This document shows, piece by piece, positions 4,835-62,654 of a stretch of 64,000 nucleotides of DNA. The DNA comes from a virus. Taxonomy: Duplodnaviria; Caudoviricetes. Below the pieces are notes generated by a model. The model made no database searches, had not been told where the DNA came from, and was given only the letters and a program-made list of their open reading frames with translations. Both the position numbers and the translations under genes were made by a program. Every line of letters begins with the position of its first letter. Within the stretch, counting starts at the first letter, position 1. Where the stretch lies: positions 1-64,000 of the IMG/VR virus record IMGVR_UViG_2561511128_000006. One strand, written 5' to 3'.

Positions 4835-5002
4835 TCCCGAATTGCGCGCTAAAAATACCCCACTGGCGATCAAAAATGAGCAATCTGTTCCGAATCGCGC
4901 GCGAAATTTTCCGCCTCAAAATTTTTCATAACATCCCGTGACGCAAGGCCAATCTACCCATTTCCCGAATTACCCGCATGTCCCGAATTGATCGCTACCC
5001 CA
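4835..5002 (-). repeat. Mu-type end: terminal TG plus repeated putative transposase-binding sites
   Basis: TCCCGAATT at 4835, 4963 and 4981; TTCCGAAT at 4888; TACCCCA at 4856-4862 and 4996-5002. Confidence 0.65.
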
Positions 5003-5805
5003 GTCTTGATGCGCGGCGTGGTGCGCGGATAGGGAAGACCCGTTCCGGGGGCTTCAAAAACGAACCGCTCATTTTCGCGTAAGGCATAGAGACGGAACAG
5101 CACGCTATATAATGTAGGGCTCATGGCAATCGTGCGTGATTCCCGGTTCCCGCCCCGGCGTTTGCTTGTCCACAGCCGGACGGTCCTGTTTTCCAGATCG
5201 ACATCTTCCCACGCCATTTCGCGGATTTCGGAAATGCGCCCCGCCGTATGGAGAAGGCAGAGCAGGAAATCCCGCTCGAACCCTGTAGCGCAGGACATGA
5301 GCTTGGCAACGTCACCTTTCGGTGGAATATATTTCACGGCCTGCACTGTGGCGAAAGGCTCAGTCTGGCGCGCAATATTGACCGGAACGTACCCCTCTCG
5401 TGCGGCCCATGAGTAAAGCGCTGATAACTCGATACGGTACTTGTTCGCGGATTTTGCGCTCACGGCTTCCTTGGCTGCTTCAAGAAAGGCTTCCAGATCG
5501 TTTTTTGTGATAGTTGAGAATTCGGCTTTAGGTCCGATGAACTTATTTAGCTTTCGAAGAACGCTTTTCTTATAGATGAGTGTGTTCTTCTTGCATCTTC
5601 CTTCGCGTTTTTGAAGATAGAGAGCCGAAACCTCATACAAGGCCAAGCGTTTGGGCATAGTTGCGGATTTCTTGACGATTGATTCCCATTCGAGCGCCTT
5701 CATCTTGCTCAAGAATCCGCCCCGGTACGCGATTCTTTGCCCTCCTTCGAACACTTCCGCCGCGTATCGCATACCATTCTTCGTCTTGTATTTCCTGATG
5801 GACAT
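4954..5805 (-). pseudogene. int: Tyrosine integrase truncated by the Mu-like insertion
   Basis: Arm-binding N-terminus and catalytic HTAGRISEI present. No HxxR or catalytic Tyr. The last 15 codons (GVAINSGHAGNSGNG) read through Mu-end sequence. Confidence 0.85.
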
Positions 5806-16549: not shown

Positions 16550-17215
16550 CTAAACAAGCTGCCAAGTCCAAACGACTTTCCCAATAATGATGTTGTCGTA
16601 TCCCTCATTAGAAACTTTCTGTGGTTTCCATCTGGGATTGTCTGAATGGAGGATAATATTACCATCCTCATCTTGCATAACTCTTTTAACAACCAAACCA
16701 AATGGGGGACGCTGTACAAGGTAAATGCCGCCGTCCTCTAGTTCGTCGTCAAGAGGGATAACACCTACATAAGCCCCTTTTAAGATTGTAGGTTCCATAC
16801 TGTCGCCAGTAACTTTAACGGCACGAACATCGGGAAGATTATACTGAGGGAGAACAGGGATCATATTTTCTGGAGCGGTAGAAAAAAATTCAGCTGGTAG
16901 TCCGGCACCTGCTTCTTCAAAGACAGGTATCTCATGTAAGTTGTCCCCTGTTACGTTTTCAGTAGGAGAGTGACAGGCCATACGACGCATTACAGGATAC
17001 CTTTCTTCATCCGGGAAAATCACCAATGCCCCCATAGCTGACAATATTTTTGATACCTTATCGAGCCCAAGTTGCTGGGCTTTGACCCCTAAAGCACGCG
17101 ACAAGTTCGCCTGACTGACGCCACATTTTTGAGCAAATGCAGCTATCTGGCGTTGATCTGAAATGTCCCTCAACCGAGCCATGAGTTTTTCTTCTAGTTC
17201 CATACGTTCCTGCAT
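16550..17215 (-). CDS. cI: CI-type repressor (HTH + S24 peptidase)
   Basis: CGVSQANLSRAL HTH; VTGDSMEPTI, LVVKRV; start uncertain (17203/17215). Confidence 0.92.
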   Translation of the reverse strand: MQERMELEEKLMARLRDISDQRQIAAFAQKCGVSQANLSRALGVKAQQLGLDKVSKILSAMGALVIFPDEERYPVMRRMACHSPTENVTGDNLHEIPVFEEAGAGLPAEFFSTAPENMIPVLPQYNLPDVRAVKVTGDSMEPTILKGAYVGVIPLDDELEDGGIYLVQRPPFGLVVKRVMQDEDGNIILHSDNPRWKPQKVSNEGYDNIIIGKVVWTWQLV

Positions 17216-17260
17216 ACGATACTGAGGACAAAAAGTCATCTTTCGTAAATGTAATTTTAC

Positions 17261-17289
17261 TTGCATATAGATACGTATATGTATATACT
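17261..17289 (+). promoter_or_regulatory. pR-like promoter
   Basis: TTGCAT-17-TATACT containing the ATACGTAT palindrome. Confidence 0.75.
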
Positions 17290-23115: not shown

Positions 23116-23476
23116 CGTGTGGGTGAGCCAGTTCGAACTGTCAGAGGCCATCGGTGACGTGGGGGCGGTCATCCTCTGCGCACAGTGCGGTGGACGTTCA
23201 TACTTTATCCCCCGGAAGCCCACAGGTTTTCTTCTGGAGTTGCTTGGTCGGCAGCGTATGGCGGCACTCTGTACAGAATTTTGGGGGATGCAGATCGTCG
23301 TGCCCAACCTGCGCCGTGGTGAACCGTTCAAAGGACGTATCCTGTCCCGTCTGGAAGCAGGGGAGAAGCCGGACGCCATCGCCGAAGCCCTTGGCGTGAC
23401 CACCAGGTACGTCCGTCGGCTCAAAAAGCAGCTTTGCGGGAACCCGGAACCACAGCAGCAATATCGGCTGTTGTAG
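23108..23476 (+). CDS. Mor/C-family transcription activator 2
   Basis: CGGRSYFIP...FWGMQIVVP...IAEALGVTTRYVRRL. Confidence 0.8.
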   Translation: MSDVWVSQFELSEAIGDVGAVILCAQCGGRSYFIPRKPTGFLLELLGRQRMAALCTEFWGMQIVVPNLRRGEPFKGRILSRLEAGEKPDAIAEALGVTTRYVRRLKKQLCGNPEPQQQYRLL

Positions 23477-23492
23477 AATCTTGTTCACGGTG
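23476..23492 (+). promoter_or_regulatory. Late-promoter motif copy 1 (lysis operon)
   Basis: GAATCTTGTTCACGGTG. Confidence 0.7.
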
Positions 23493-23541
23493 TCCTCCCC
23501 CTATTCTCTTGTGCGAGAGTGGACGCAGGAGGATATTTTTT

Positions 23542-25812: not shown

Positions 25813-27268
25813 CCCAGCCATCCTTTCCGATATCCGGAAGGCGTTGGCCCGGAGCTGTCTCGCGGCCTTCGTGCGCTACACCATGCCCGGCTACCGCATG
25901 GGATGGGTGCATGAGGAAATCTGTTCCGAGCTAGACGCCTTCCTTGCCGATGTCGTAGCCGGGCGTTCCCCGCGCCTCATGCTGACCATGCCGCCCCGCC
26001 ACGGGAAAAGCGAGCTCGCCTCCCGACGTTTCCCGGCTTACGCCTTGGGCCGTTATCCTGATCTATCCGTCATTTCAACGAGCTACGCCGCCGACCTGTC
26101 CTCGCGCATGAACCGCGACGTCCAGCGTGTCATCGACAGTCCGGAATACCGGGAACTCTTTCCCGGCACGGCGCTGTACGGCAAGAACATCCGCACCGTG
26201 GGGAACGGTTCCTACCTCCGCAATTCAGATATATTCGAGGTAGTGGGGCACGCTGGATGCTACCGTTCCGCTGGCGTGGGCGGCGGCATCACGGGCATGG
26301 GCGGGCATATCGTCATCGTCGACGACCCATTCAAAGACCGGGCATCCGCCGATTCCCCGACCATCCGCCAGAACGTCTGGGACTGGTACACGTCCACGCT
26401 GTACACGCGCCTCGCGCCCGGCGGGGGGGTTCTCATTATCAATACGCGCTGGCACATGGCCGACCTTTCCGGGCGGCTGCTTGAGGCCGCCGCACGGGGG
26501 GAGGGCGACCACTGGCGTGTGGTGGACTTCCCCGCCATCGCCACGGCGGACGAGCCACATCGTAAGGCCGGGGAAGCCCTGCACCCGGAACGTTACCCGC
26601 TGAGCCAGCTCCTTGCCATTAAGAAAGCCCTCGGCACACGCGACTGGGAGGCCCTGTACCAGCAGCGGCCTACGCCCGACGGCGGCGCCATTTTCAAATC
26701 CGAGTGGTTGCGCTTCTGGCTCCCCAAAGATCTGCCAGAGCAGTTCGACCAGCTCCTTATCTCGTGGGATATGACGTTCAAGGACGGCGACGATACCGAC
26801 TTTGTTGTGGGGCAGGTGTGGGGCCGCAAGGGGGCCGACCGCTACCTCCTCGATCAGGTCCGGCGGCGCATGGGATTTACGGATACGGTCGCCGCGTTCC
26901 GGGCGCTCGCCGCTAAATGGCCCGGCGCAGCCCGTAAGCTGGTGGAGGATAAGGCCAACGGCCCGGCGGTTATCGACGCGCTGAAACATGCTGTGCCTGG
27001 TATCATCCCCGTGGAGCCGGACGGCAGCAAGACGGCCCGGGCCCATGCCGTGACCACGTTCTTCGAGGCCGGGAACGTCCTGCTCCCGCACCCTGAGCAT
27101 TGCCCGTGGGCGCGGGAGTACGTCGCGGAACTGACACAGTTCCCCGGTGCGCCCCACGACGACCAAGTGGACGCCACAACACAGGCGCTGCGTGATTTCG
27201 ATACCAAGCGGCCCATGTGCATCAACCCCGCCATCCTCAATCATCCACGTATGGGAAGGAGAATATAA
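25805..27268 (+). CDS. terL: Terminase large subunit
   Basis: MPPRHGKSE (Walker A), IVIVDDP, ISWDMTFK, HDDQVDA. Confidence 0.95.
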   Translation: MSSPAILSDIRKALARSCLAAFVRYTMPGYRMGWVHEEICSELDAFLADVVAGRSPRLMLTMPPRHGKSELASRRFPAYALGRYPDLSVISTSYAADLSSRMNRDVQRVIDSPEYRELFPGTALYGKNIRTVGNGSYLRNSDIFEVVGHAGCYRSAGVGGGITGMGGHIVIVDDPFKDRASADSPTIRQNVWDWYTSTLYTRLAPGGGVLIINTRWHMADLSGRLLEAAARGEGDHWRVVDFPAIATADEPHRKAGEALHPERYPLSQLLAIKKALGTRDWEALYQQRPTPDGGAIFKSEWLRFWLPKDLPEQFDQLLISWDMTFKDGDDTDFVVGQVWGRKGADRYLLDQVRRRMGFTDTVAAFRALAAKWPGAARKLVEDKANGPAVIDALKHAVPGIIPVEPDGSKTARAHAVTTFFEAGNVLLPHPEHCPWAREYVAELTQFPGAPHDDQVDATTQALRDFDTKRPMCINPAILNHPRMGRRI

Positions 27269-27282
27269 ATGAATGTAAAGAG

Positions 27283-28029
27283 TTAGAGTCCTGCTTCTTG
27301 ACATCTTTCCTTCACAAAAGGGTTCTCGTTACCTTGTAGTCTTTCAATACGTCTGGCCCGCGTGCATTCCCACGCATCAACCGGATACATCTTGTCCCAT
27401 GCGTCCATGAGCTGCGTCTGCTGGCGGCTCATGCGGTAGCGCGGGGCATAGGCGTCGGCCATATACTTGTAGGTCCGGGCAATCTGTCCCCTCGCTCTGA
27501 TAGGCGGCTCGGCCCTGCGGTCGGCGATCTTCATCCCGCAGCTTCCGAAGTCCGGCTCCTCGCCCGGCAACATCTGAAAGTTGTAGTTCTGGCGTAGGGC
27601 ATTCACCGCGCCGATGGCCGGATACAGATTGTACAGGTCAGCCTGCATGAGCCTGTATTCCCGGCTGACCTTCTCGGCGCACTTGCGGCCTTTGAACGCC
27701 TTTCCCCTGTTGTCCACGCACTGCGCGTCGCCCTCGCGCCACTCCGCGAACGCCTGCCCGAAGTTCTCGGCGGGGACCACGTGTTCCCATTCCACCTTCC
27801 CGGCCCGCTTCTCGTGCTTCGCGGCAGTAAAACCCTCCGGCAGGGTGACGTTCTTCTTCTCGTCGAACGCCGCCCCGCAGTAGAGCGTGATCCGATGGTC
27901 ATAATAGACCTGCCGTTCCAGCGTCTTCTTGGCCTTGCTGAACGAATCGTTCCATTCGTTGCCCGCGGCCTGCGCCTCGGACGTCATAACCAGCGCGGCC
28001 AGCAGAAACACCATGATGCTTTTGTACAT
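27283..28029 (-). CDS. endA: Secreted endonuclease I (EndA/Dns family) moron
   Basis: Signal peptide; VEWEHVVPA, MQADLYNLYPAIGAVNALRQN, ARGQIARTY, GNENPFV. Confidence 0.92.
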   Translation of the reverse strand: MYKSIMVFLLAALVMTSEAQAAGNEWNDSFSKAKKTLERQVYYDHRITLYCGAAFDEKKNVTLPEGFTAAKHEKRAGKVEWEHVVPAENFGQAFAEWREGDAQCVDNRGKAFKGRKCAEKVSREYRLMQADLYNLYPAIGAVNALRQNYNFQMLPGEEPDFGSCGMKIADRRAEPPIRARGQIARTYKYMADAYAPRYRMSRQQTQLMDAWDKMYPVDAWECTRARRIERLQGNENPFVKERCQEAGL

Positions 28030-28113: not shown

Positions 28114-28130
28114 GAACCTTGTTCACGGTG
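28114..28130 (+). promoter_or_regulatory. Late-promoter motif copy 2 (portal/head operon)
   Basis: GAACCTTGTTCACGGTG. Confidence 0.75.
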
Positions 28131-28163
28131 TGTTTTCTTTTTGGCTCGTAGCATTATGGGCAC

Positions 28164-35895: not shown

Positions 35896-35938
35896 AACCA
35901 ACTCCTACTGTTAAGAGTTGGCATCGCCGATGAATGAC

Positions 35939-36020
35939 GATGCCGGGTGTTCATCACCGCCAGTAGGAGCGGCTCCCTGCCTTTAGCTTACGCTTGGACA
36001 TATCAGGGACACCCGGCATC
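35939..36020 (-). ncRNA. C4-like antisense RNA, copy 1
   Basis: 12-bp closing stem GATGCCGGGTGT/ACACCCGGCATC; seeds complementary to the antirepressor RBS region; extended -10 TGcTATACT upstream. Confidence 0.75.
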
Positions 36021-36252
36021 AGGAAGATGCAAGTATAGCAGAAAACCAAAGTCAAAAAGAGTCTTGACTTCGGCAAAAGGGCACAAAAAGAGCCATACTA
36101 TCGGGTGGCGTTGTCCGCCTACTGTTGGTGTGATGAGCACCGTAGAAAAAAGACAGCACAAAACGCGAAAAATGTAAAGAGAAAAGCAGTGGCGTTGCCC
36201 GCATCTGGATGTTCTTCATCTGCATTGGCGGACAACGCCACGTTGGAAAGTT

Positions 36253-37323
36253 TTACTTGTTATCGTATTTCAAGGCCGTAGCCCGGATTCGATCCGCAAA
36301 GGGGATAATATCTTCCAGTTTTTCGATGTCTTCCTTTGCGTCCTTATTCTCCCCATCAAACAGTCCGACCCTCCACTGTTTTCCGTTGAAATACAGGCGG
36401 CACAGAGGCTTGAGCCTGTTGTCGTCAAGAAGGATGGAGCAGTAGCTGATGCTGTCCCGCATGGCTACGCGCCCCGGATCAACGGTGCCCATCAGAAGCG
36501 ATTTGACAAGGTAATACGCCTCTTTTTCTTCCTCGGTGGTGACTATACGCGAATCCTGCTCTTTTCCTTGTGGGGTATCTTCGGACTCTATCTCTACAAT
36601 TTCCGGTTTCTGCTGCGTCATGGCATTTTTCAATCGGTCGTTGATGCGGTCGTTGATGAACTGGTCAAGCGCAGCGGTAAGGATTGGAGTGAAGCGATCC
36701 AGAACGTTTTGCGTGATACGCCCATCATACGTCTGTCCGATGAAAAAGCGTGCGAAATCTTCGTGGGGCGTTTCCATTTGTTCGGACATGAGGCGTTTGA
36801 ACTCTCGGTTGTACTTGAGTTCGTTTGCCGCGCTCATGCAGGCATCCCGATCAAACTTGCCTTTTGCCAACTTGCGCAGTTCCGGGAGCAACATTTCATC
36901 CATATCGTCAAGGACGAACTCCATATAGGGCTTGCTGTCCATTTTGTTGGCTGTTTCAAGATCGGAATAGAACCGGTAACGGTTGCCGTCCGTCAGGATG
37001 GCAATGGGGGCTTCCGTCCCGTGGAAGTAAAGCTGTAGCTGGTTGCAGTGCTTCATGTCGAGAGACGTGCCCAAAGCCTTGCACTCCAGAAGAAGGATAG
37101 GCTTGCCGTCCACAAGAATCGCATAGTCCACGCGGGCGTCCTTATATTCGCCGATGGGGGCTGAAAATTCGGGCACGACTTCCGCAGGGTTGAAAACGTC
37201 GTATCCCAGGGCCGCGATGAAAGGCATCACCAAGGCGTTTTTCGTGGCCTCTTCGGTCTTGAGGCTATCTCCCAGATTCTTTACCTTTTTCGACAATTCA
37301 GCAATTCTTTCCGAAAAATCCAT
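36253..37323 (-). CDS. HsdR_N-like PD-(D/E)XK nuclease moron
   Basis: EEATKNALVMPFI..LGYDVFNP.EV.PE, RVDYAI, LLECK, ILTDGNRYRFY. Confidence 0.85.
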   Translation of the reverse strand: MDFSERIAELSKKVKNLGDSLKTEEATKNALVMPFIAALGYDVFNPAEVVPEFSAPIGEYKDARVDYAILVDGKPILLLECKALGTSLDMKHCNQLQLYFHGTEAPIAILTDGNRYRFYSDLETANKMDSKPYMEFVLDDMDEMLLPELRKLAKGKFDRDACMSAANELKYNREFKRLMSEQMETPHEDFARFFIGQTYDGRITQNVLDRFTPILTAALDQFINDRINDRLKNAMTQQKPEIVEIESEDTPQGKEQDSRIVTTEEEKEAYYLVKSLLMGTVDPGRVAMRDSISYCSILLDDNRLKPLCRLYFNGKQWRVGLFDGENKDAKEDIEKLEDIIPFADRIRATALKYDNK

Positions 37324-38452: not shown

Positions 38453-38468
38453 GAACCTTGTTCACGGT
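38453..38468 (+). promoter_or_regulatory. Late-promoter motif copy 3
   Basis: GAACCTTGTTCACGGT. Confidence 0.7.
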
Positions 38469-38535
38469 ATCTGCCCCGTTGTCCTGCGGGCTATCCTTTT
38501 TCAATGTGCTGTATTGGCACGTAAGGAGGTAGCGC

Positions 38536-39548: not shown

Positions 39549-39628
39549 TATGGCGGCTCCTTGCTTTCCGAGTAGGACGCCATAACGCATGTCCCATGTC
39601 AAGCGCCAGAGGTGAGAGAGCTTTTCCC

Positions 39629-39645
39629 GAACCTTGTTCACGGTG
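39629..39645 (+). promoter_or_regulatory. Late-promoter motif copy 4
   Basis: GAACCTTGTTCACGGTG. Confidence 0.7.
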
Positions 39646-39698
39646 TGCCCCCACGCCGCCATGCGGCATCATCTCCAAAACACTATGGAGGTGCAGCG

Positions 39699-40487
39699 AT
39701 GGAAAATTCCCCCCTGGCTCTTTTTGAACATGAAAAATTCGGTTCCCTTCGCGTCGTCAGAAGTGATCAGGGGGCCCAGTGGTTCGTGGCGAAAGACGTG
39801 TGCGGGTGTCTCGGGCTGGATACCAGTAACCTTTCAAAAATGTTGGATGAAGACGAGCTTTCGACCTACCCCGTACAGTATACGGATCAGGTCAGGAATC
39901 TTTCCGTCGTATCCGAACCGGGCCTGTATTCCCTCATCCTGCGTTCCCGCAAGCCCGAAGCCAAGGCGTTCAAGCGGTGGGTGACGCATGAGGTCATCCC
40001 CTCCATCCGCAAGACGGGCGGCTACCTGATAGCCAAGCCGGACGATACCCCCGAAGCCATCCTTGCCCGCGCCGTGCTGGTCGCGCAGGACACCATCAGG
40101 CGCATCGAAGCCGAGCGCGACGAGGCAATCCGCACCAAGGCCGAAATTGGTTCACGCCGCGAGGCCACCGCAATGGCAACCGCCTCCGCAGCCGTACGCA
40201 AGGCTGCGGCTCTTGAGAACGAACTTGGGCGGGGCAGGGACTACAAGTCCGTGAAGGGCATCCCGTGGTTCCTTGACGTCTTCGCAGATACGCCAGCCGC
40301 GTACTCCGTCGCAGGACGCAAGCTTTCCGATATGTCCCGCCGTATGGATTACGAAATCCGGGAAATCGAGGACAGCCGTTTCGGGAGCGTGAAGGCGTAC
40401 CACGTCGACGTGATCGAAGCCTTCCGGCTGGCCCTGAAAAACGACCTGAACATGCTGGGCAAGTACCGCCTTCGCCGTGCCGCATAG
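39699..40487 (+). CDS. BRO-N family antirepressor-like protein
   Basis: WFVAKDVC..L, VVSEPGLYSLILRSRKPEAKAFKRWVTHEVIPSIRKTG. Confidence 0.9.
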   Translation: MENSPLALFEHEKFGSLRVVRSDQGAQWFVAKDVCGCLGLDTSNLSKMLDEDELSTYPVQYTDQVRNLSVVSEPGLYSLILRSRKPEAKAFKRWVTHEVIPSIRKTGGYLIAKPDDTPEAILARAVLVAQDTIRRIEAERDEAIRTKAEIGSRREATAMATASAAVRKAAALENELGRGRDYKSVKGIPWFLDVFADTPAAYSVAGRKLSDMSRRMDYEIREIEDSRFGSVKAYHVDVIEAFRLALKNDLNMLGKYRLRRAA

Positions 40488-40489
40488 CC

Positions 40490-40506
40490 GAACTTTGTTC
40501 ACGGTG
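40490..40506 (+). promoter_or_regulatory. Late-promoter motif copy 5 (neck/tail operon)
   Basis: GAACTTTGTTCACGGTG. Confidence 0.75.
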
Positions 40507-40561
40507 ATTTCGTCCCGGCTCTTTTGCCATGATGACCAAAACAACGGAGGGATACAGAGAT

Positions 40562-55085: not shown

Positions 55086-55212
55086 TTAGAAGTAATTTCA
55101 AGTGCCGCCAAGCATCATTAAGTGCTTGGCGGCACTTCTTTTTTGCCCCTTTCAGGGGCTTTTTTCGTGTTGCCGAATGCCGTTGAGTGAAGTTGACAGC
55201 CGCGATTTTTTT

Positions 55213-55259
55213 GGGGCAACAATAGGGGCAACTATCTACTATACCCATGGAGTTGCCCC
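55213..55259 (+). repeat. Putative arm-type sites of the P4-like integrase
   Basis: GGGGCAAC at 55213 and 55225; inverted GTTGCCCC at 55252. Confidence 0.6.
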
Positions 55260-55260
55260 A

Positions 55261-56439
55261 ATGCCTCTGACAGATACGCGGATCAAAGCAGCCAAGCCCA
55301 CGGATAAGGTCTACAAGATTTATGATGCCGAAGGGTTGTACATTGAAGTCCCGCCGAACGGCAGCAAGCGGTGGCGGTTCAAATACAGGATAAACGGCAA
55401 AGAAAAACGGATCAGCCTCGGTATCTATCCCGAGATTGGTTTAAAGGATGCGCGGGAAAAACGTGATGAAGCCCGAAGGCAGGTTGCGGCGGGCCGGGAC
55501 CCCAGCGTCATAAAAAACAAGACTGCATATGCGGAGAAAACCTTTCAGCACATAGCCGACGAATGGGTTGCGCTTCATCGGGCAACATGGGCTCCGCGTC
55601 ATACGGAAACGGTCGAGCAAAGGCTGAGAAGCTACATTTATCCGGAACTTGGCAATGTCCCTTTGAAGGACATTACCCCGATTGAAGTCCTGAGCGTGAT
55701 CAAGGCGATTGAAAAGAGGGGAGCTTTGGAGGCGGCCCGCAGGACACTCGCGATCTGCTCGCAGGTTTTTCGATATGGAGTCGCTTCGGCACTTATCCCC
55801 AGTGACCCCTGTCGGGACCTTAGGGGAGCACTTGCGCCACGGGAAGAGGGGCATTTTCCGGCATTGGTGGATCGGGATGGCGCAACGGCAGTGATGCGGG
55901 CGATCCATCATTATAAAGGATCGGCTGTTGTCCGATTGGCGTTGCGTGTGCAGGCTCTGACCTTCGTACGCCCCGGCGAGTTGCGGTGGGCGAAGTGGCC
56001 GGAGTTCGATATGGCGGGTGCGCTCTGGGTGATTCCCGCAGAGCGCATGAAGATGAAGCGGGAACACTGGGTTCCCTTGTCAAGGCAGGTATTGGAGATT
56101 CTGGAGGAGCTGCATGAGATCACAGGTCATCGGGAGTACCTGTTCCCGTCGATGCGGGCGAGAAAGGATGTGCCCATTTCTGAGAACACGCTCAACGCAG
56201 CACTCAAGAGTTTGGGCTTTGACGGCATCCATGTGGCGCACGGTTTTCGGGCGATGGCTTCAAGCCTTCTGAATGAAATGGGCTGGCGCCCGGATGTCAT
56301 CGAGCGCCAGCTTTCGCATGTTGAAGAAAACAAGGTGCGTGCAGCGTACAACCGGGCGGAGTACATTACCGAGCGCCGCCAAATGATGCAGGCTTGGTCT
56401 GATTTTCTCGTTGGGTTGGCTTCCACTTCCCCGCAATAA
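55261..56439 (+). CDS. int: P4-family tyrosine integrase, intact
   Basis: MPLTDTRIKAAKP arm domain, FVRPGEL, HGFRAMAS, IERQLSH, RAAYNR. Confidence 0.95.
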   Translation: MPLTDTRIKAAKPTDKVYKIYDAEGLYIEVPPNGSKRWRFKYRINGKEKRISLGIYPEIGLKDAREKRDEARRQVAAGRDPSVIKNKTAYAEKTFQHIADEWVALHRATWAPRHTETVEQRLRSYIYPELGNVPLKDITPIEVLSVIKAIEKRGALEAARRTLAICSQVFRYGVASALIPSDPCRDLRGALAPREEGHFPALVDRDGATAVMRAIHHYKGSAVVRLALRVQALTFVRPGELRWAKWPEFDMAGALWVIPAERMKMKREHWVPLSRQVLEILEELHEITGHREYLFPSMRARKDVPISENTLNAALKSLGFDGIHVAHGFRAMASSLLNEMGWRPDVIERQLSHVEENKVRAAYNRAEYITERRQMMQAWSDFLVGLASTSPQ

Positions 56440-57396: not shown

Positions 57397-58281
57397 TTAT
57401 GCGAGCTTGCGCAGTGCGAGCGCGGCCTGGAGCGATGACTGCGCCAGCCCGAGGCTGTACCAGGCGGCGTTGATGTGGTGTTTGATGGCCTTCTCGACTT
57501 CAAACGGAACCGAGCCGATGCCGCTCAGTTCCCTGCGCACGGTGATATGCGTCCAGTTTTCAGTACCGTCGAGGGCGAAGAGGGCTTTTTCGATGTCGGC
57601 GAACAGGCGTTCCGTGGCGGGGAGGCCGGGGAGCCTTTGGGGAACGGGGCGGCGGGTGACGACTTCCGGCACGGTGGACAGGGTGTCCAGAATGTTCCGC
57701 CATGCGTCCGTCTGGCGGGCAGCGTAGCTCTGGGAGAGGAAGATGATCCCCTCGCGGGAAACCATATACTGCGGGCAGCGCTGGCCCTTGGCGTCTACAT
57801 AGTTCCCCCTGACGAAAGCGTCCCGTTGCGGGCAGACGGCGGCGGCGCGGCTTATGGCGTCGAGCACGGTGGAGTGGCGCTTATGCAGCTCTCCGGCGAT
57901 GGTGCGGGAGGAGATGCGGGAGAGGGTGCCTGTGGGTGGCGTCTGGGCATCGACGGGCACCCTGTCGCCGTACCGTTCGATGACGTCGAGAACCCACTTG
58001 CGGAACGCCTTGGCGACGGGTGTCCGGGCGAACATGGCGAGGAGGTGGCAGCCGCGGAGGGAGAAGATGCGGGTCATGACGGGAATTCCCGTGGTACTCG
58101 AATTGATGACCACGCTCATATCATTGGAAAATTCATCTTCATTGCGGCGGTAAATATTGGCAACCGCCTTTTCGGAAGAATATCCCAAGGCACGGGCAAG
58201 TTCAGAAGACTTGAACCAAGGCTGGTTGTCGCGGGTGACGGGGGAGAAGGTGAACTCATTGAAGCAGAGGGCTTGTGACAT
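57397..58281 (-). CDS. BRO-N + Rha domain antirepressor
   Basis: N-terminus paralogous to 34969-35895; ISSRTIAGELHKRHSTVLDAI...YVDAKGQRCPQY (Rha). Confidence 0.88.
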   Translation of the reverse strand: MSQALCFNEFTFSPVTRDNQPWFKSSELARALGYSSEKAVANIYRRNEDEFSNDMSVVINSSTTGIPVMTRIFSLRGCHLLAMFARTPVAKAFRKWVLDVIERYGDRVPVDAQTPPTGTLSRISSRTIAGELHKRHSTVLDAISRAAAVCPQRDAFVRGNYVDAKGQRCPQYMVSREGIIFLSQSYAARQTDAWRNILDTLSTVPEVVTRRPVPQRLPGLPATERLFADIEKALFALDGTENWTHITVRRELSGIGSVPFEVEKAIKHHINAAWYSLGLAQSSLQAALALRKLA

Positions 58282-58331
58282 GATGCAACTCCTACGGATA
58301 AAAAAGAGTTGGCATCGCCTACGAATAGCGA

Positions 58332-58411
58332 ATGCCGGGTGTTCGTAACCGCCCGTAGGTGCGGCTCCCTGCCTTTAGCTTACGCTTGGACATATCAGGG
58401 ACACCCGGCAT
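58332..58411 (-). ncRNA. C4-like antisense RNA, copy 2
   Basis: Same stems as copy 1, different seeds. Confidence 0.75.
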
Positions 58412-58582
58412 CAAGAGGATGCAAGTATAGCAGGAAACCAAAGTCAAAAAGAATCTTGACTTTGTCAAAAAGGCACAAAAAGAGCCATACTATCGGGTGG
58501 CGTTGTCCGCCTACGGGAAAAGGTGTTACGAGCACCGTAACCAGACAACGCCACAAAAATGGGGTAATGTCAAGGGTAAATA

Positions 58583-59479
58583 TCAACTGCAATATGGAAT
58601 AGAAGATCTGGATACAGTTATCTTGTCTAGATTGAATCCATTGTGCACAAGAAAATATTTAAGTTCATCTTCTTTTATTGTACAACATGGTCCTAGTATA
58701 ATTTCATGGATAGATTCTTCTAGGTACTTAAATTCAAAATATGGAATTAAATTATCTTGAGTTGCATAGAATTTCAAATCTCCTATTTCTTGATATGTAT
58801 CACTATGTTCTTCGTCAGCCCATGTACAATTTTTGTAATTATTTATATCATTTTTGTATGTATCATTTATTATTTTATTAATACTTGTTCCGTATTTCAT
58901 ACTTTTAATACCTAGCGGTATAAATACTATTCTTGATTCTTCTTCCTCTATGAATCCATTGTGTTTTAATAGCGATGCTTCTTTTATTATATTTATTATA
59001 TTTATGTAATATGATTCTAATATTGTTGGTTTAGAAAAATTTTTATATATATCATTAATTATAACATTGATATCATGTTTATTTTTGTCAATATAGCTTT
59101 CATTGTCATAACAAACTTTTTCATAGAATAAATTATGGTATTTTAAATTAAATTTAAATCCTATTGATATGCCTCTTCCATCGTTACCGTATGCTCTCCA
59201 TTGACTAAGCTTATCTCCTTTTTTAGAAAAACAAGATATAAAAACATCTGTTTTTAAAAAATAATCAATTACAATATTTTTATTTATTCTCTTTATATTT
59301 GTTTGTTTAGTGTCTTCCTTGTATAAAATATCTATTTTTTTCTCTATATAATCTAATAATAATTTCAATTCTTTTTTGTCATTCTGGTGATAGGCTGATG
59401 TAAGGCGTAGTTTTTTACTTTCGATAATTTTTTGAAAAACATCAATACTTCTATACTGATACATAGTTTCATTTTTCAT
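58583..59479 (-). CDS. DUF2971-family protein, very AT-rich
   Basis: YQYRS, FISCFS...LSQWRAYG...GISIGF, EEEESR, IILGP. Confidence 0.85.
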   Translation of the reverse strand: MKNETMYQYRSIDVFQKIIESKKLRLTSAYHQNDKKELKLLLDYIEKKIDILYKEDTKQTNIKRINKNIVIDYFLKTDVFISCFSKKGDKLSQWRAYGNDGRGISIGFKFNLKYHNLFYEKVCYDNESYIDKNKHDINVIINDIYKNFSKPTILESYYINIINIIKEASLLKHNGFIEEEESRIVFIPLGIKSMKYGTSINKIINDTYKNDINNYKNCTWADEEHSDTYQEIGDLKFYATQDNLIPYFEFKYLEESIHEIILGPCCTIKEDELKYFLVHNGFNLDKITVSRSSIPYCS

Positions 59480-59495
59480 TTTACTTACTCAATGT

Positions 59496-59756
59496 TTAAT
59501 AATGATACCGACATTGCAACACGATCAACGTGTCACTTCGCTCATCCAGTTTATAGGCGAGGCGCTCTTCCTGATTGATACGGCGCGACCAGCATCCGGC
59601 AAGATCGAAGCGTAGCGGCTCCGGCTTGCCGAGTCCTTTAAAAGGGGAACACAGCGCGTCATGCAAAAGTTCGTTGATGCGTTTTACCGTGCGCTTGTCG
59701 ATATGTTGCCAGTATAGATAGTCTTCCCACGCCTGCGGCGTCCATGTGAGCCGCAT
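59496..59756 (-). CDS. yoeB: YoeB/Txe toxin
   Basis: AWEDYLYWQ, GLGKPEPL, WSRRINQEERL.Y, C-terminal CRYHY. Confidence 0.95.
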   Translation of the reverse strand: MRLTWTPQAWEDYLYWQHIDKRTVKRINELLHDALCSPFKGLGKPEPLRFDLAGCWSRRINQEERLAYKLDERSDTLIVLQCRYHY

Positions 59757-60010
59757 CAGTCCACCATCTCATGCGCCGTAGTTGCGCCGGTATTGGCGGC
59801 GCTCAGAGAGTCCCGCAGGCGAGAGGCATTGGCTGGCGAGCGCAACAGATAGGCGGTTTCCATGATGCTGTTGTAATCCTCCAGAGACATCATGACCACG
59901 GAAGGCGACTTCTGGCGGGTGATGATGACCGCTTCGTGATGGTCGCAGACTCGGTTCATAGTGTCTGCAAGGTTCTGGCGGGCTTTGGAATAGGTAATGG
60001 CCTGAGACAT
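59756..60010 (-). CDS. yefM: YefM/Phd antitoxin
   Basis: ITYSKARQNLA, MMSLEDYNSIMETAYLLRSPANA; TGTACA/TGTACG operator pair at 60027 and 60039. Confidence 0.95.
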   Translation of the reverse strand: MSQAITYSKARQNLADTMNRVCDHHEAVIITRQKSPSVVMMSLEDYNSIMETAYLLRSPANASRLRDSLSAANTGATTAHEMVD

Positions 60011-60210
60011 GGCAATCTCCTATTTTTGTACAAATATATGTACGTAACAAGGGCAGGTCAAGCCAAATAAAAGGCGATAGGGTAGTGGGAAAGTCAAGGC
60101 GGCGGGGGACGAAAAAGCCACTCACGGTGGAAGGGCTTGGGGGAGTTTTCAAATTTGAAGTATACGGATACTCTGTTTTTAAGACAAAACTTATAGAAGA
60201 GGGATTGAAC

Positions 60211-61770
60211 ATGGATTTACATTCGTTGGTAAAAGATTTCAGTACCACGCCATTCCTCTTTGTGGGGTCTGGTTTTTCACGGAGATATTACGATCTTCCC
60301 GACTGGGAAGGGCTTTTGAAGATTTTTGTCCAAAGATTAAGTGGTGATGAATTCGCCTTCAACAAGTATACAAGTACGGCTGAAAGCCTCATCAACTCCG
60401 GAAGAGAAGGAGTTCGACTTGCCGTTGTAGCAGGACTTGTCATGCAGGATTTTGACAAACGCTGGTATGAGGAGCCATCTTTCAGACAGGTGAAAGATGA
60501 CTATAAGCCGTTTGTAAAGAACGGTCAGTCACCATTCAAGGTGGAGATAGCCCAATATATTGATGAGCATTCAATTCCTGTGGAGAACATGCGTGATGAG
60601 TTGGCAAAACTAAAGGAACTTTCCAACCGTAGTTTGGCTGGTATCATTACCACGAATTATGATCGCCTTCTTGAGGTGGAAACGGAAGGCTATAAATCCT
60701 TTGTAGGGCAAGAAGAACTTATTTTTTCGGCACTTCAGGGTTGGGCGGAAATATACAAAATACATGGTTCCGTTACCGATCCAAGCACTATTCTTATTAC
60801 TGACAAAGATTATAGAGAATTTAAGGAGTTCAGCCCTTATCTTACAGCAAAACTCATGACGATATTTATGGAATATCCTATCATATTTATGGGGTATTCC
60901 TTGACTGATCCCAATATCCGCATCATATTGGAAGATCTCGGAAAATGCTTATCAAAGAAAAATCTCGAAAAGCTTCAGAGTCGTTTTATTTATGTTGAGC
61001 ATAAAAGGGGACAGGAGGATGTGGAGCTTTTTGAACATTCTGTAGCAATCGGTGATGACCATATCCATATGACTGGAATCAGAACAGATAATTTTATGGC
61101 GATTTATGAAGCCCTTGGGGATAAGCGGGCTTCTCTTCCTGCCAAGCTTATTCGTATGTTCAAGCAAGAATTCTACACTTTTGCATTAACTAATGAACCT
61201 ACGGCTAGAATGCGTGTGGCTGCTATTGATGACGAAAGGGTAGGGGATGAAGAACTTGTACTTGGAATTGGAAAGTCTTCAGAGTTTGCCTTAAAGGGGC
61301 TGTCCGGAATGACGTCAAGAGAATGGTATCAACATGTCGTTCTGCATGATCTGGAGTTTACTGCCGATGATATTTTAACATATGCTTTCCCGTCCCTATA
61401 TAGAGCTAATAATGTATTACCATTGAATATGTTGCTAAAAGAAGCTGCGGGAAATTATCCAGAGTGTATAGAATGTAGATGTACAAATTTTGATGATATA
61501 ATTAATGGAAGACATAAAAAAAATAGAAATAGAAAACATATACCTGCAAGAAGTGTTAACGGAATTGTTGAAACATTCCATAATGATACGCATAAAATTA
61601 TATACGAAATACCTTATCTCAATGAATCTGAAATAGATGTGGATGAGTTAGAGAACTACCTGATAAACTTTTTCCGCCAAAGGGGGGCTTACGACAACCT
61701 AAACAGCAATGAAAGATCGGATATGAATAGGTTGGTGCGGATATTCGATTACTTGAAATATGGCAGATGA
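60211..61770 (+). CDS. SIR2-like (SIR2_2) domain protein, putative NADase defence effector
   Basis: LFVGSGFS, IITTNYDRLLE, YKIHGSV, IIFMGYSLTDPNI. Confidence 0.88.
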   Translation: MDLHSLVKDFSTTPFLFVGSGFSRRYYDLPDWEGLLKIFVQRLSGDEFAFNKYTSTAESLINSGREGVRLAVVAGLVMQDFDKRWYEEPSFRQVKDDYKPFVKNGQSPFKVEIAQYIDEHSIPVENMRDELAKLKELSNRSLAGIITTNYDRLLEVETEGYKSFVGQEELIFSALQGWAEIYKIHGSVTDPSTILITDKDYREFKEFSPYLTAKLMTIFMEYPIIFMGYSLTDPNIRIILEDLGKCLSKKNLEKLQSRFIYVEHKRGQEDVELFEHSVAIGDDHIHMTGIRTDNFMAIYEALGDKRASLPAKLIRMFKQEFYTFALTNEPTARMRVAAIDDERVGDEELVLGIGKSSEFALKGLSGMTSREWYQHVVLHDLEFTADDILTYAFPSLYRANNVLPLNMLLKEAAGNYPECIECRCTNFDDIINGRHKKNRNRKHIPARSVNGIVETFHNDTHKIIYEIPYLNESEIDVDELENYLINFFRQRGAYDNLNSNERSDMNRLVRIFDYLKYGR

Positions 61771-62015: not shown

Positions 62016-62654
62016 CTATAGCACCCTTCCAAACCACCGCACCCGTCCGTAGACACGGAAAGCTTCAAGGTCGGGACCTTCCACCGCTACGTCCGCGAAA
62101 TCGCGGTTTTCCGAGCGCAGAAGCCAGCCGCGGGCCGTGCGCTGGAGACGCTTGACCAAAAGCTCCTCACCGAGGCCAACGAGAAAGATTTTGCCGTCGC
62201 TCGGTTCCTTGACCGACTGATCCACGAGTATGGTGTCCTTGTGGCGGATGAGCGGTTCCATGCTGTTGCCTATGACGTCGAGCATGACGGATTCCTTGGA
62301 GTGGATGCCCACGCGGTTCAGGAAGTCGCGGCGGAAGGCGTAATACCCGAGTACTTCGTCGGACGTGATCAGGGACGAACCCGCTCCGGCCCGTGCGGTC
62401 ACCTTCGGAACCATGTCATACCCCTCGAGACGTTCACCATGTTCCGGGACGTCAATTCCCATGAGATCAAGGGCTTTTCCCAGTTCGTTGAGCGTAGGTG
62501 TGCGATCCCCGAGAAGCCAGCGGCGCAGCGTGTGCGGGTTGATGCCAAAGTAGGATCCGGCAGCCGTTACATTGCCGTTGAACTCGCGTTCGACGTAATT
62601 TTTCAAAATGTGGAGGATTTTTTCTGCGTACATGGGATAATTGTATGGAAACAA
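62016..62654 (-). CDS. cI: CI-type repressor (HTH + S24)
   Basis: VIGNSMEPLI, LLVKRL, VYGRVRW. Confidence 0.92.
   Translation of the reverse strand: MFPYNYPMYAEKILHILKNYVEREFNGNVTAAGSYFGINPHTLRRWLLGDRTPTLNELGKALDLMGIDVPEHGERLEGYDMVPKVTARAGAGSSLITSDEVLGYYAFRRDFLNRVGIHSKESVMLDVIGNSMEPLIRHKDTILVDQSVKEPSDGKIFLVGLGEELLVKRLQRTARGWLLRSENRDFADVAVEGPDLEAFRVYGRVRWFGRVL

Follow-up and report, generated by a model that had tools for sequence, protein, structure and literature searches.

A leader of about 270 nucleotides (nt) stands directly ahead of an antirepressor gene in a stretch of viral DNA (Caudoviricetes; IMG/VR record IMGVR_UViG_2561511128_000006, positions 1 to 64,000; the whole 64,000 nt is called the window here), and a nearly identical leader stands ahead of another antirepressor gene in the same window. 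The question raised by this locus is why the two leaders agree almost everywhere and differ in a few short boxes that can pair with one another, and what such an arrangement would do for the phages that carry it. The leaders lie on the minus strand of two tandem prophages, A and B, and are called copy 1 (prophage A) and copy 2 (prophage B). Our answer, to which we give a probability of about 0.8, is that copy 2 is the antirepressor control cassette of the second prophage, built like the c4 region of immI in phages P1 and P7. The c4 antisense RNA of P1/P7 immI goes back to Citron and Schuster 1990 (cited in PMC7313666 and PMC2864571).

Layout of the copy 2 leader

Copy 2 consists of a folded scaffold that exposes two short seeds, together with two pairs of boxes complementary to those seeds, one pair upstream of the scaffold and one between the scaffold and the start codon. 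The elements of both copies are listed below, with the P1 names of equivalent boxes in brackets.

58285-58555, minus strand: copy 2 module, with the same layout as copy 1 (35899-36144)
58497..58553, minus strand: upstream decoy/target region, in which an inverted repeat, GUGGCGUUGUCUGG / GCGGACAACGCCAC, surrounds the first target pair
58522..58536, minus strand: mini-hairpin GGUG-CUCGUAA-CACC, whose 7-nt loop (58526-58532) is linker target 1 (P1's a1)
58510..58517, minus strand: loop target 1, CCCGUAGG (P1's b1), the 8-nt complement of the hairpin 2 loop, with CCGUAGG at 58510-58516
58472..58502, minus strand: short hairpin GCCA..UGGC followed by UCUUUUU, read from the sequence and weakly terminator-like
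58442..58461, minus strand: palindrome AGUCAA-N8-UUGACU, candidate protein operator and/or -35 region
58424..58432, minus strand: extended -10-like TGCTATACT, about 14 nt 5' of the scaffold, putative promoter
58334..58409, minus strand: scaffold RNA, 76 nt, with a 9-bp closing stem (GCCGGGUGU/ACACCCGGC), hairpins 1 and 2 and a single-stranded linker
58367-58400, minus strand: hairpin 1, with an internal loop and a GNRA-capped inner stem
58348-58365, minus strand: hairpin 2, whose loop is the loop seed
58353..58359, minus strand: loop seed CCUACGG (P1's b'), in the loop of hairpin 2
58342..58348, minus strand: linker seed UUACGAA (P1's a'), between hairpin 2 and the closing stem
58311..58336, minus strand: hairpin GGCAUUCGC/GCGAUGCC, whose loop displays linker target 2, UUCGUA, at 58320-58325 (P1's a2)
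58298-58310, minus strand: AACUCUUUUUUAU, directly after the preceding hairpin
58289..58297, minus strand: loop target 2, CCGUAGGAG (P1's b2), overlapping the Shine-Dalgarno (SD) sequence GGAG, with CCGUAGG at 58291-58297
57397..58281, minus strand: antirepressor gene of prophage B, 294 aa, Bro-N and Rha domains, the gene that copy 2 would regulate
35899..36144, minus strand: copy 1 module of prophage A, scaffold at about 35942-36017, loop seed CUCCUACUG, linker seed GUGAUGAA
34969..35895, minus strand: antirepressor gene of prophage A, 308 aa, Bro-N domain, the gene that copy 1 would regulate

The product of 57397..58281 matches Bro-N (2.9e-13) and Phage_pRha (7e-07) in Pfam and the anti-repressor Ant in PHROG (1.2e-35). 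The scaffold of copy 2 ends 52 nt before the ATG of this gene, and the CCGUAGG of loop target 2 continues into GGAG, 7 nt ahead of the ATG at 58279-58281. The preliminary description of this DNA had placed the seed and target boxes at coordinates that proved exact throughout, and its linker pairing had to be revised, as the linker seed pairs upstream with UCGUAAC (7 nt) and downstream only with UUCGUA (6 nt). It had also named the seeds in the reverse of P1 usage, where a' is the linker seed and b' is the loop seed.

The minimum free energy fold of the copy 2 scaffold is the consensus fold of its family (-39.2 kcal/mol, z -4.35), and the copy 1 scaffold folds alone into the same shape (-37.3 kcal/mol, z -3.75). 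A covariance model of the scaffold, R1, scores 93.4 bits on copy 2 and 94.1 bits on copy 1. The upstream region at 58497..58553 folds at -32.6 kcal/mol (z -4.98). We considered the long inverted repeat round the upstream targets as a conserved structure and rejected it; because its left arm is absent from copy 1 and from about half of the relatives, the long upstream stem is treated as optional. The GGUGC..ACACC frame of the upstream mini-hairpin is kept, and in every intact module of the family described below its loop and the linker seed vary together, while loop target 1 alters together with the loop seed between copies 1 and 2. At the position equivalent to the short hairpin at 58472..58502, relatives carry a GGCG..CGCC stem and a U-run.

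The palindrome, AGTCAA-N8-TTGACT in DNA letters, is located at the promoter-like region of the module, and within the window it is present in two modules only, with 0 copies expected by chance. An operator common to the cI regions was tried as its explanation and set aside, since no further copy was found in the window, including the surroundings of the S24 repressor genes. At the -10-like position, relatives show TGCTATACT or GCTATAAT.

Compensatory change between the copies and across a family

Copy 2 had been described as a near-identical repeat of copy 1 with an identical middle stem-loop, and we confirmed both points: a repeat finder gave 94% identity over 183 nt (against 35940-36122), BLAST gave 88% identity over 254 nt, and hairpin 1 is identical between the copies. 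Between 58282 and 58540, 34 columns differ, of which 11 fall in the 47 seed and target positions. The 76-nt scaffold contains four differences, all within the two seeds (P ~0.0014, from position alone), and three of the four are matched by an exact complementary change at both copies of the target. In the loop seed, G>U at 58354 is compensated by C>A at 58296 and 58515; in the linker seed, U>G at 58347 is compensated by A>C at 58320 and 58527, and C>U at 58345 by G>A at 58322 and 58529. The fourth change, A>U at 58360, extends pairing into the SD sequence in copy 1 only. A triple seed change with an exact complementary change at both targets is far beyond chance, and to this extent the seeds and all of their targets co-vary as had been claimed.

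The same relation was found in other phages. A search of viral contigs with a 22-nt degenerate pattern taken from hairpin 1 returned 66 loci, which came down to 30 distinct intact modules once chance hits and duplicates had been removed. All 30 have the loop target at the SD sequence, the linker target a few bases 5' of it and a second target pair upstream of the RNA; the upstream pair, of the a1/b1 type, is also present in most hits in genomes. The modules represent 26 seed combinations (23 loop seeds, 14 linker seeds), each with matching targets. Seeds reassort among them, CCUAGUU occurring with GAUGAA or UACGAA and CCUACUG with GAUGAA or UAGAGA. Cognate seeds and targets have 13-16 nt in Watson-Crick matches, against a non-cognate mean of 8.5, and the summed duplex energies are -22.4 kcal/mol for cognate and -13.4 kcal/mol for non-cognate combinations.

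Intermolecular covariation was assessed in an alignment of scaffold plus leader from 21 sequences, with 500 shuffles and with the partner slid by 1-3 columns as controls. Changes on both sides were present at 6 of the 7 pairs of the helix between loop seed and SD sequence and at 4 of the 6 pairs of the linker helix, about 91% of the cells in these intermolecular helices were paired as compared with 40-51% after sliding, and the observed covariation scores were reached by 0 of 500 shuffles. The two-seed address code put forward in the preliminary description is upheld by these data, as the 30 modules form 26 classes in which the seeds co-vary with both target pairs, and as this covariation passed the shuffle and slide controls. 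Inside the scaffold, pairing covers 99.6% of the helix cells, compensatory change is seen at five pairs and a G-U closing pair is invariant. The seeds are among the most variable scaffold columns (~1.0 bit), and the closing stem and the interior of hairpin 1 stay at 0.05-0.07 bit. In the other subfamily, a GAAC/GUUC hairpin displays linker target 2 in its loop, and compensatory change is seen in both stems (helices 6 and 7).

These patterns bear on the nature of the element, which could also be imagined at the level of DNA, as protein operators or recombination sites that were duplicated along with the antirepressor gene and whose binding-site variants we read as seeds. A palindrome (58442-58461) and a repeated GGCGGACAACGCCAC motif are indeed present in the modules, and the cassette moves between loci. 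However, the covariation is antiparallel and Watson-Crick with G-U tolerated, the folds are strand-specific (z ~-4), a model of an RNA family matches over its full length (see below), and the closing pair is an invariant G-U, which favours RNA over DNA. We find an explanation in terms of DNA sites barely credible.

In a relative of prophage A (L007), the flanks of the copy 1 locus are 93% identical to those in the window, and the cassette at that locus is 96% identical to copy 2. Given this swap, the specificities behave as exchangeable alleles. The exchange is also relevant to a purely cis-acting leader with two states, in which the seeds would pair within their own transcript, translation would be set by the site at which transcription had begun and no trans or immunity role would exist. 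Such a leader would be in keeping with six elements within 270 nt on one strand, with one target per side for each seed, as a two-state switch would require, and with covariation that fits pairing in cis as well as pairing in trans. It accounts poorly for seeds and targets that are hypervariable next to helices that are nearly unchanged, for near-identical phages with different cassettes at one locus and for combinatorial reassortment of the seeds. Hypervariable seeds, allele exchange and reassortment are what diversifying selection on recognition between genomes would produce, and they would not be expected of an internal helix. In addition, the P1 record annotates c4, which has the same layout, as an antisense RNA on the icd-ant mRNA. 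We consider it unlikely that the leader acts in cis alone, and cis and trans action are compatible with each other.

R1 found matches in 25 of 151 genomes of the window's own bacterial family, spread over 21 of 72 genera, and gave 0 matches in 147 genomes of other families in the phylum. The genes directly downstream of family members (n=52) include 20 with Bro-N, 13 with Rha, 4 with ORF6N and 1 with AntA domains. A blastn search of cultured-phage records recovered the Bro-N coding part only, and the RNA was not found in them.

Relatives of prophage A (L084, L101, L090) carry further cassettes between terminase and portal or after the tail-fibre genes; the terminase-portal site corresponds to 27229-27309 of the window, where a minus-strand open reading frame (ORF) of 248 aa is found. 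Two viral contigs hold two cassettes each. One contig (L083, 827-990) has an a1/b1-like region after the scaffold and not before it, and another (L080, 1610-1691) has a scaffold without matching loop targets that may be decayed.

Comparison with P1/P7 c4 and proposed mechanism

The P1 record annotates immI in the order operator Oc4, two promoters, a1, b1, the 77-nt C4 RNA, a2, b2, icd and ant1, and the layout of copy 2 equals this leader point for point, which bears out the C4-like reading given earlier. As in the window family, the RNA of P1/P7 is encoded by the strand of the antirepressor operon, in the operon's leader, and it has a closing stem, two hairpins and seeds in the hairpin 2 loop and in the linker. 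In both systems one target pair precedes the RNA and one follows it, and each pair has its linker target first and its loop target second, with a loop target on the ribosome-binding site, the first upstream target in a hairpin loop and a hairpin with a U-run between the upstream pair and the RNA. On P1 itself, the Rfam C4 model puts one hairpin capped by UUCG and another whose loop has 12 nt within a closing stem, with a single strand of 7 nt ahead of the 3' arm of that stem, the c4-a1b1 model sets a1 in a hairpin loop, and the isrK model spans a1/b1 and the terminator. Variants in specificity also arise alike, by 1-2 bases per seed with all four targets compensated: an alignment of P1 with P7 shows two loop-seed and two linker-seed changes with eight compensating target changes in a background that is 97% identical, and this is the pattern of change between copies 1 and 2. 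Of the features of the P1/P7 type, a same-strand RNA in an antirepressor leader, two seeds, two target pairs and natural variants were found in the window family. The P1/P7 type is further marked by an RNA that RNase P cuts from the operon transcript to about 77 nt, by control that runs through translation of icd and by a promoter under the main repressor of the prophage, with Oc4 as the operator in P1.

The family departs from P1 in several respects. Its long hairpin 1 contains an internal loop and a capped inner stem, unlike that of P1 c4; its promoter-like element is found 3' of the upstream targets and 5' of the RNA, whereas both promoters of P1 come before a1; and its hosts are integrated prophages with S24 repressors, whereas P1 is a plasmid prophage.

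In the mechanism that we propose, an RNA of about 80 nt would be made from the strand of the gene, probably from the extended -10 promoter just upstream; its start, ends and processing we infer. The closing stem would hold the two hairpins and leave the CCUACGG loop and the UUACGAA linker exposed, and each of these seeds would pair with a site of its own in the 50-nt antirepressor mRNA leader, the linker with the UUCGUA in the hairpin loop and the loop with the SD-covering CCGUAGGAG. The linker seed would probably make the first contact, with the target in the hairpin loop, and pairing of the loop seed with the SD sequence would block the start of translation, so that the lysogen would keep its antirepressor silent. 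The upstream target pair, with the weak terminator-like hairpin after it, would probably serve as a decoy when the transcript is longer, or as a partner in processing, like a1/b1 of P1. Specificity would reside in about 4-6 variable bases per seed. A phage with other seeds would then escape the resident RNA (heteroimmunity), and co-resident prophages would each control only their own antirepressor.

Control of the opposite sign was also considered, in which the RNA activates the antirepressor by opening a leader hairpin that hides the ribosome-binding site. The folded leaders do put the SD sequence partly in a hairpin (AACUC/GAGUU in copy 2, a 10-bp stem in copy 1). The loop seed, however, pairs with the SD sequence itself (CUCC:GGAG in most members) and would occlude the ribosome, and the P1 precedent is repression. 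We judge activation to be very improbable and propose that the RNA represses.

P1 c4 reportedly acts in trans, and trans action and orthogonality of the window copies are predicted from their seeds and targets. A third copy, on contig C29 of the same genome, has the loop seed CUCCUAGUU, the linker seed of copy 1, matching targets and a Rha-type gene downstream. When the energies of the three RNAs on the three leaders were computed, the cognate combinations gave -26.6, -24.5 and -25.0 kcal/mol and the others -11.6 to -20.0 kcal/mol, so that selectivity among the three copies is predicted by this model to be good and not absolute.

A number of findings weigh against a repressor cassette of the c4 type that acts selectively in trans. 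RNA 1 on leader 2 retains 7 bp at the SD sequence (-18.6 kcal/mol versus -24.5 kcal/mol for the cognate RNA), copies 1 and 3 have one linker seed in common, and covariation alone does not separate pairing in cis from pairing in trans. On the minus strand, a simple sigma-70 scan called no -35/-10 pair, and a terminator scan called no intrinsic terminator, the hairpin at 58472..58502 included. Unlike P1, the window family is without an icd ORF and pairs directly with the SD sequence of the antirepressor, and the 3' tail after its closing stem is AUU or AUC, whereas c4 has a conserved CCACC. The Rfam models C4 (RF01695, cut-off 45 bits) and c4-a1b1 (RF03163, cut-off 46.7 bits) matched neither copy even at E<=10, and R1 run on P1 immI did not detect P1 c4. 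Homology to c4 itself is unsupported because the two Rfam models miss the window copies and R1 misses P1 c4, and the window family lies outside membership of Rfam C4.

As positive controls, C4 scored 68.8 bits and c4-a1b1 scored 51 bits on P1. An Rfam scan of the whole window at gathering scores gave no match. No icd-like ORF fits between scaffold and start codon, where the gap is 41-58 nt in most members (46-58 nt in the viral-contig modules).

Possible relation to sRNA-Xcc1, and prophage setting

Among Rfam families, the nearest to the window family is sRNA-Xcc1 (RF02221), an RNA of an integron cassette in Xanthomonas campestris (PMC2996969; Chen et al. 2011). In the literature it is viewed as a free-standing, trans-acting sRNA linked to virulence (PMC12189769; PMC7313666), and not as a guard of an antirepressor. 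RF02221 aligns copy 2 from end to end at 30.7 bits (E 0.0018), which does not reach its cut-off of 53 bits, and it gave no match to copy 1 at E<=10. In the reverse direction, R1 recovers true members of RF02221, and graded intermediates occur in related genomes. The two groups have the same four-part topology and differ in the interior of hairpin 1, which reads GAUAUGUCCAAG..AAAGGC in the window family and AAUACAA..GGGGAA in sRNA-Xcc1. At three other loci of the genome RF02221 does pass its cut-off (59.9, 59.3 and 56.8 bits), and the members read in this genome share the upstream GGUG-loop-CACC hairpin and the logic of seeds and targets with the window family. Two such modules on contig C29 precede Rha-type genes. 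The reciprocal sub-threshold matches, the graded intermediates and the common frame of the upstream hairpin suggest that the window family is a sister group of sRNA-Xcc1.

The two RF02221 modules of contig C29 (39092-39175 and 39702-39789; L146) lie 610 nt apart, each with its own seeds, targets and Rha-type gene. With modules of all types included, seven c4-like ones are present in the genome, and no two of them have the same loop seed.

Other phage RNAs resemble the window family in part. The CI RNA of P4 and phiR73 is small and is processed from the leader of the operon under its control, and, like the window family, it has target boxes on both sides that set the specificity of immunity; unlike the window family, it works by premature termination of transcription, has one seed and controls replication genes. 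The sar RNA of P22 immI is likewise small and restricts how much antirepressor a temperate phage makes. It is a true cis-antisense RNA on the opposite strand across the ant start, whereas the window RNA is on the same strand as the antirepressor gene and pairs through short seeds. IsrK, of the Salmonella prophage Gifsy-1, has been described as a short activating RNA. Its Rfam model (RF01394) covers the a1/b1 hairpins and the terminator of P1, a part that corresponds to the upstream decoy region of the window, ahead of an antirepressor-type gene, and the model gave no match in the window at E<=10.

To our knowledge, immunity set by an RNA has until now been special to P1/P7 and P4. The idea of RNA-based immunity groups is the classic heteroimmunity of P1 and P7 and is not new; the new parts are the scaffold family, its breadth and its link to sRNA-Xcc1. 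The same immunity logic would here rest on another scaffold and belong to ordinary integrated prophages whose repressors are LexA-like, in cassettes that are common in one bacterial family and have dozens of natural specificities. We rate the chances as even for a wider proposal, that the window RNA, sRNA-Xcc1 and P1 c4 are branches of one class of two-seed address RNAs, in which sRNA-Xcc1 would be an antirepressor guard, the cassettes a natural library of selective repressors and the diversity of seeds a product of superinfection conflicts between prophages, of which this genome would have seven. If it is true, at least 26 mutually selective combinations of repressor and target exist on one scaffold with independently reassorting seeds, and the class would be widespread, with mobile elements placing such RNAs ahead of antirepressor-type genes. 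The findings on the window family suggest that loci annotated as sRNA-Xcc1 be re-read as antirepressor control cassettes. The family allows comparisons of how few bases are enough to set the specificity of RNA-RNA pairing in vivo, its compact natural scaffold with two seeds could serve the study of selective translational repressors in laboratory strains, and it may help to predict which co-resident or incoming prophages can induce each other.

That the copies belong to co-resident prophages, as had been proposed, agrees with the gene content of the window, where each copy lies in a prophage of its own, and the two prophages, placed in tandem, have separate integrases and S24 repressors. Prophage A extends from about 4.9 kb to 54.9 kb, with an integrase at 4954-5805, an S24 repressor at 16550-17266 and genes for a DnaB-like helicase, terminase, portal, protease, tape measure, baseplate and tail fibre; copy 1 is located among morons in its late region. 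Prophage B starts with a P4-type integrase (55102-56439), followed by copy 2, a block of low GC content and an S24 repressor (62016-62654), and continues past the end of the window with a helicase, an HNH protein and a primase-helicase. A single prophage with both copies was considered, as relatives of prophage A can hold two cassettes in one genome, and it is countered by the P4-type integrase, the second S24 repressor and the second replication module to the right of 55 kb.

The integrase at 4954-5805 is short (283 aa), matches only part of the profile of the catalytic domain and may be truncated. The low-GC block (58583-61770, 0.38-0.41), between the copy 2 cassette and the S24 repressor of prophage B, encodes a DUF2971 protein, a YoeB toxin with a small ORF upstream and a SIR2_2 protein, a content that resembles a defence island. 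Just 5' of copy 1, a hairpin at 36189-36241 contains two inverted copies of the GGCGGACAACGCCAC motif and a U-run; it resembles a terminator for the endonuclease-like gene that precedes it (36253-37323) and points to reuse of the motif. Lastly, GAACCTTGTTCACGGTG occurs in five copies on one strand (23476-23500, 28114-28138, 38453-38477, 39629-39653 and 40490-40514), at the starts of gene blocks in the late region, where the copies may be late promoters or sites for a regulator, and one of them is at the start of a third antirepressor-type gene (39612-40487, plus strand).

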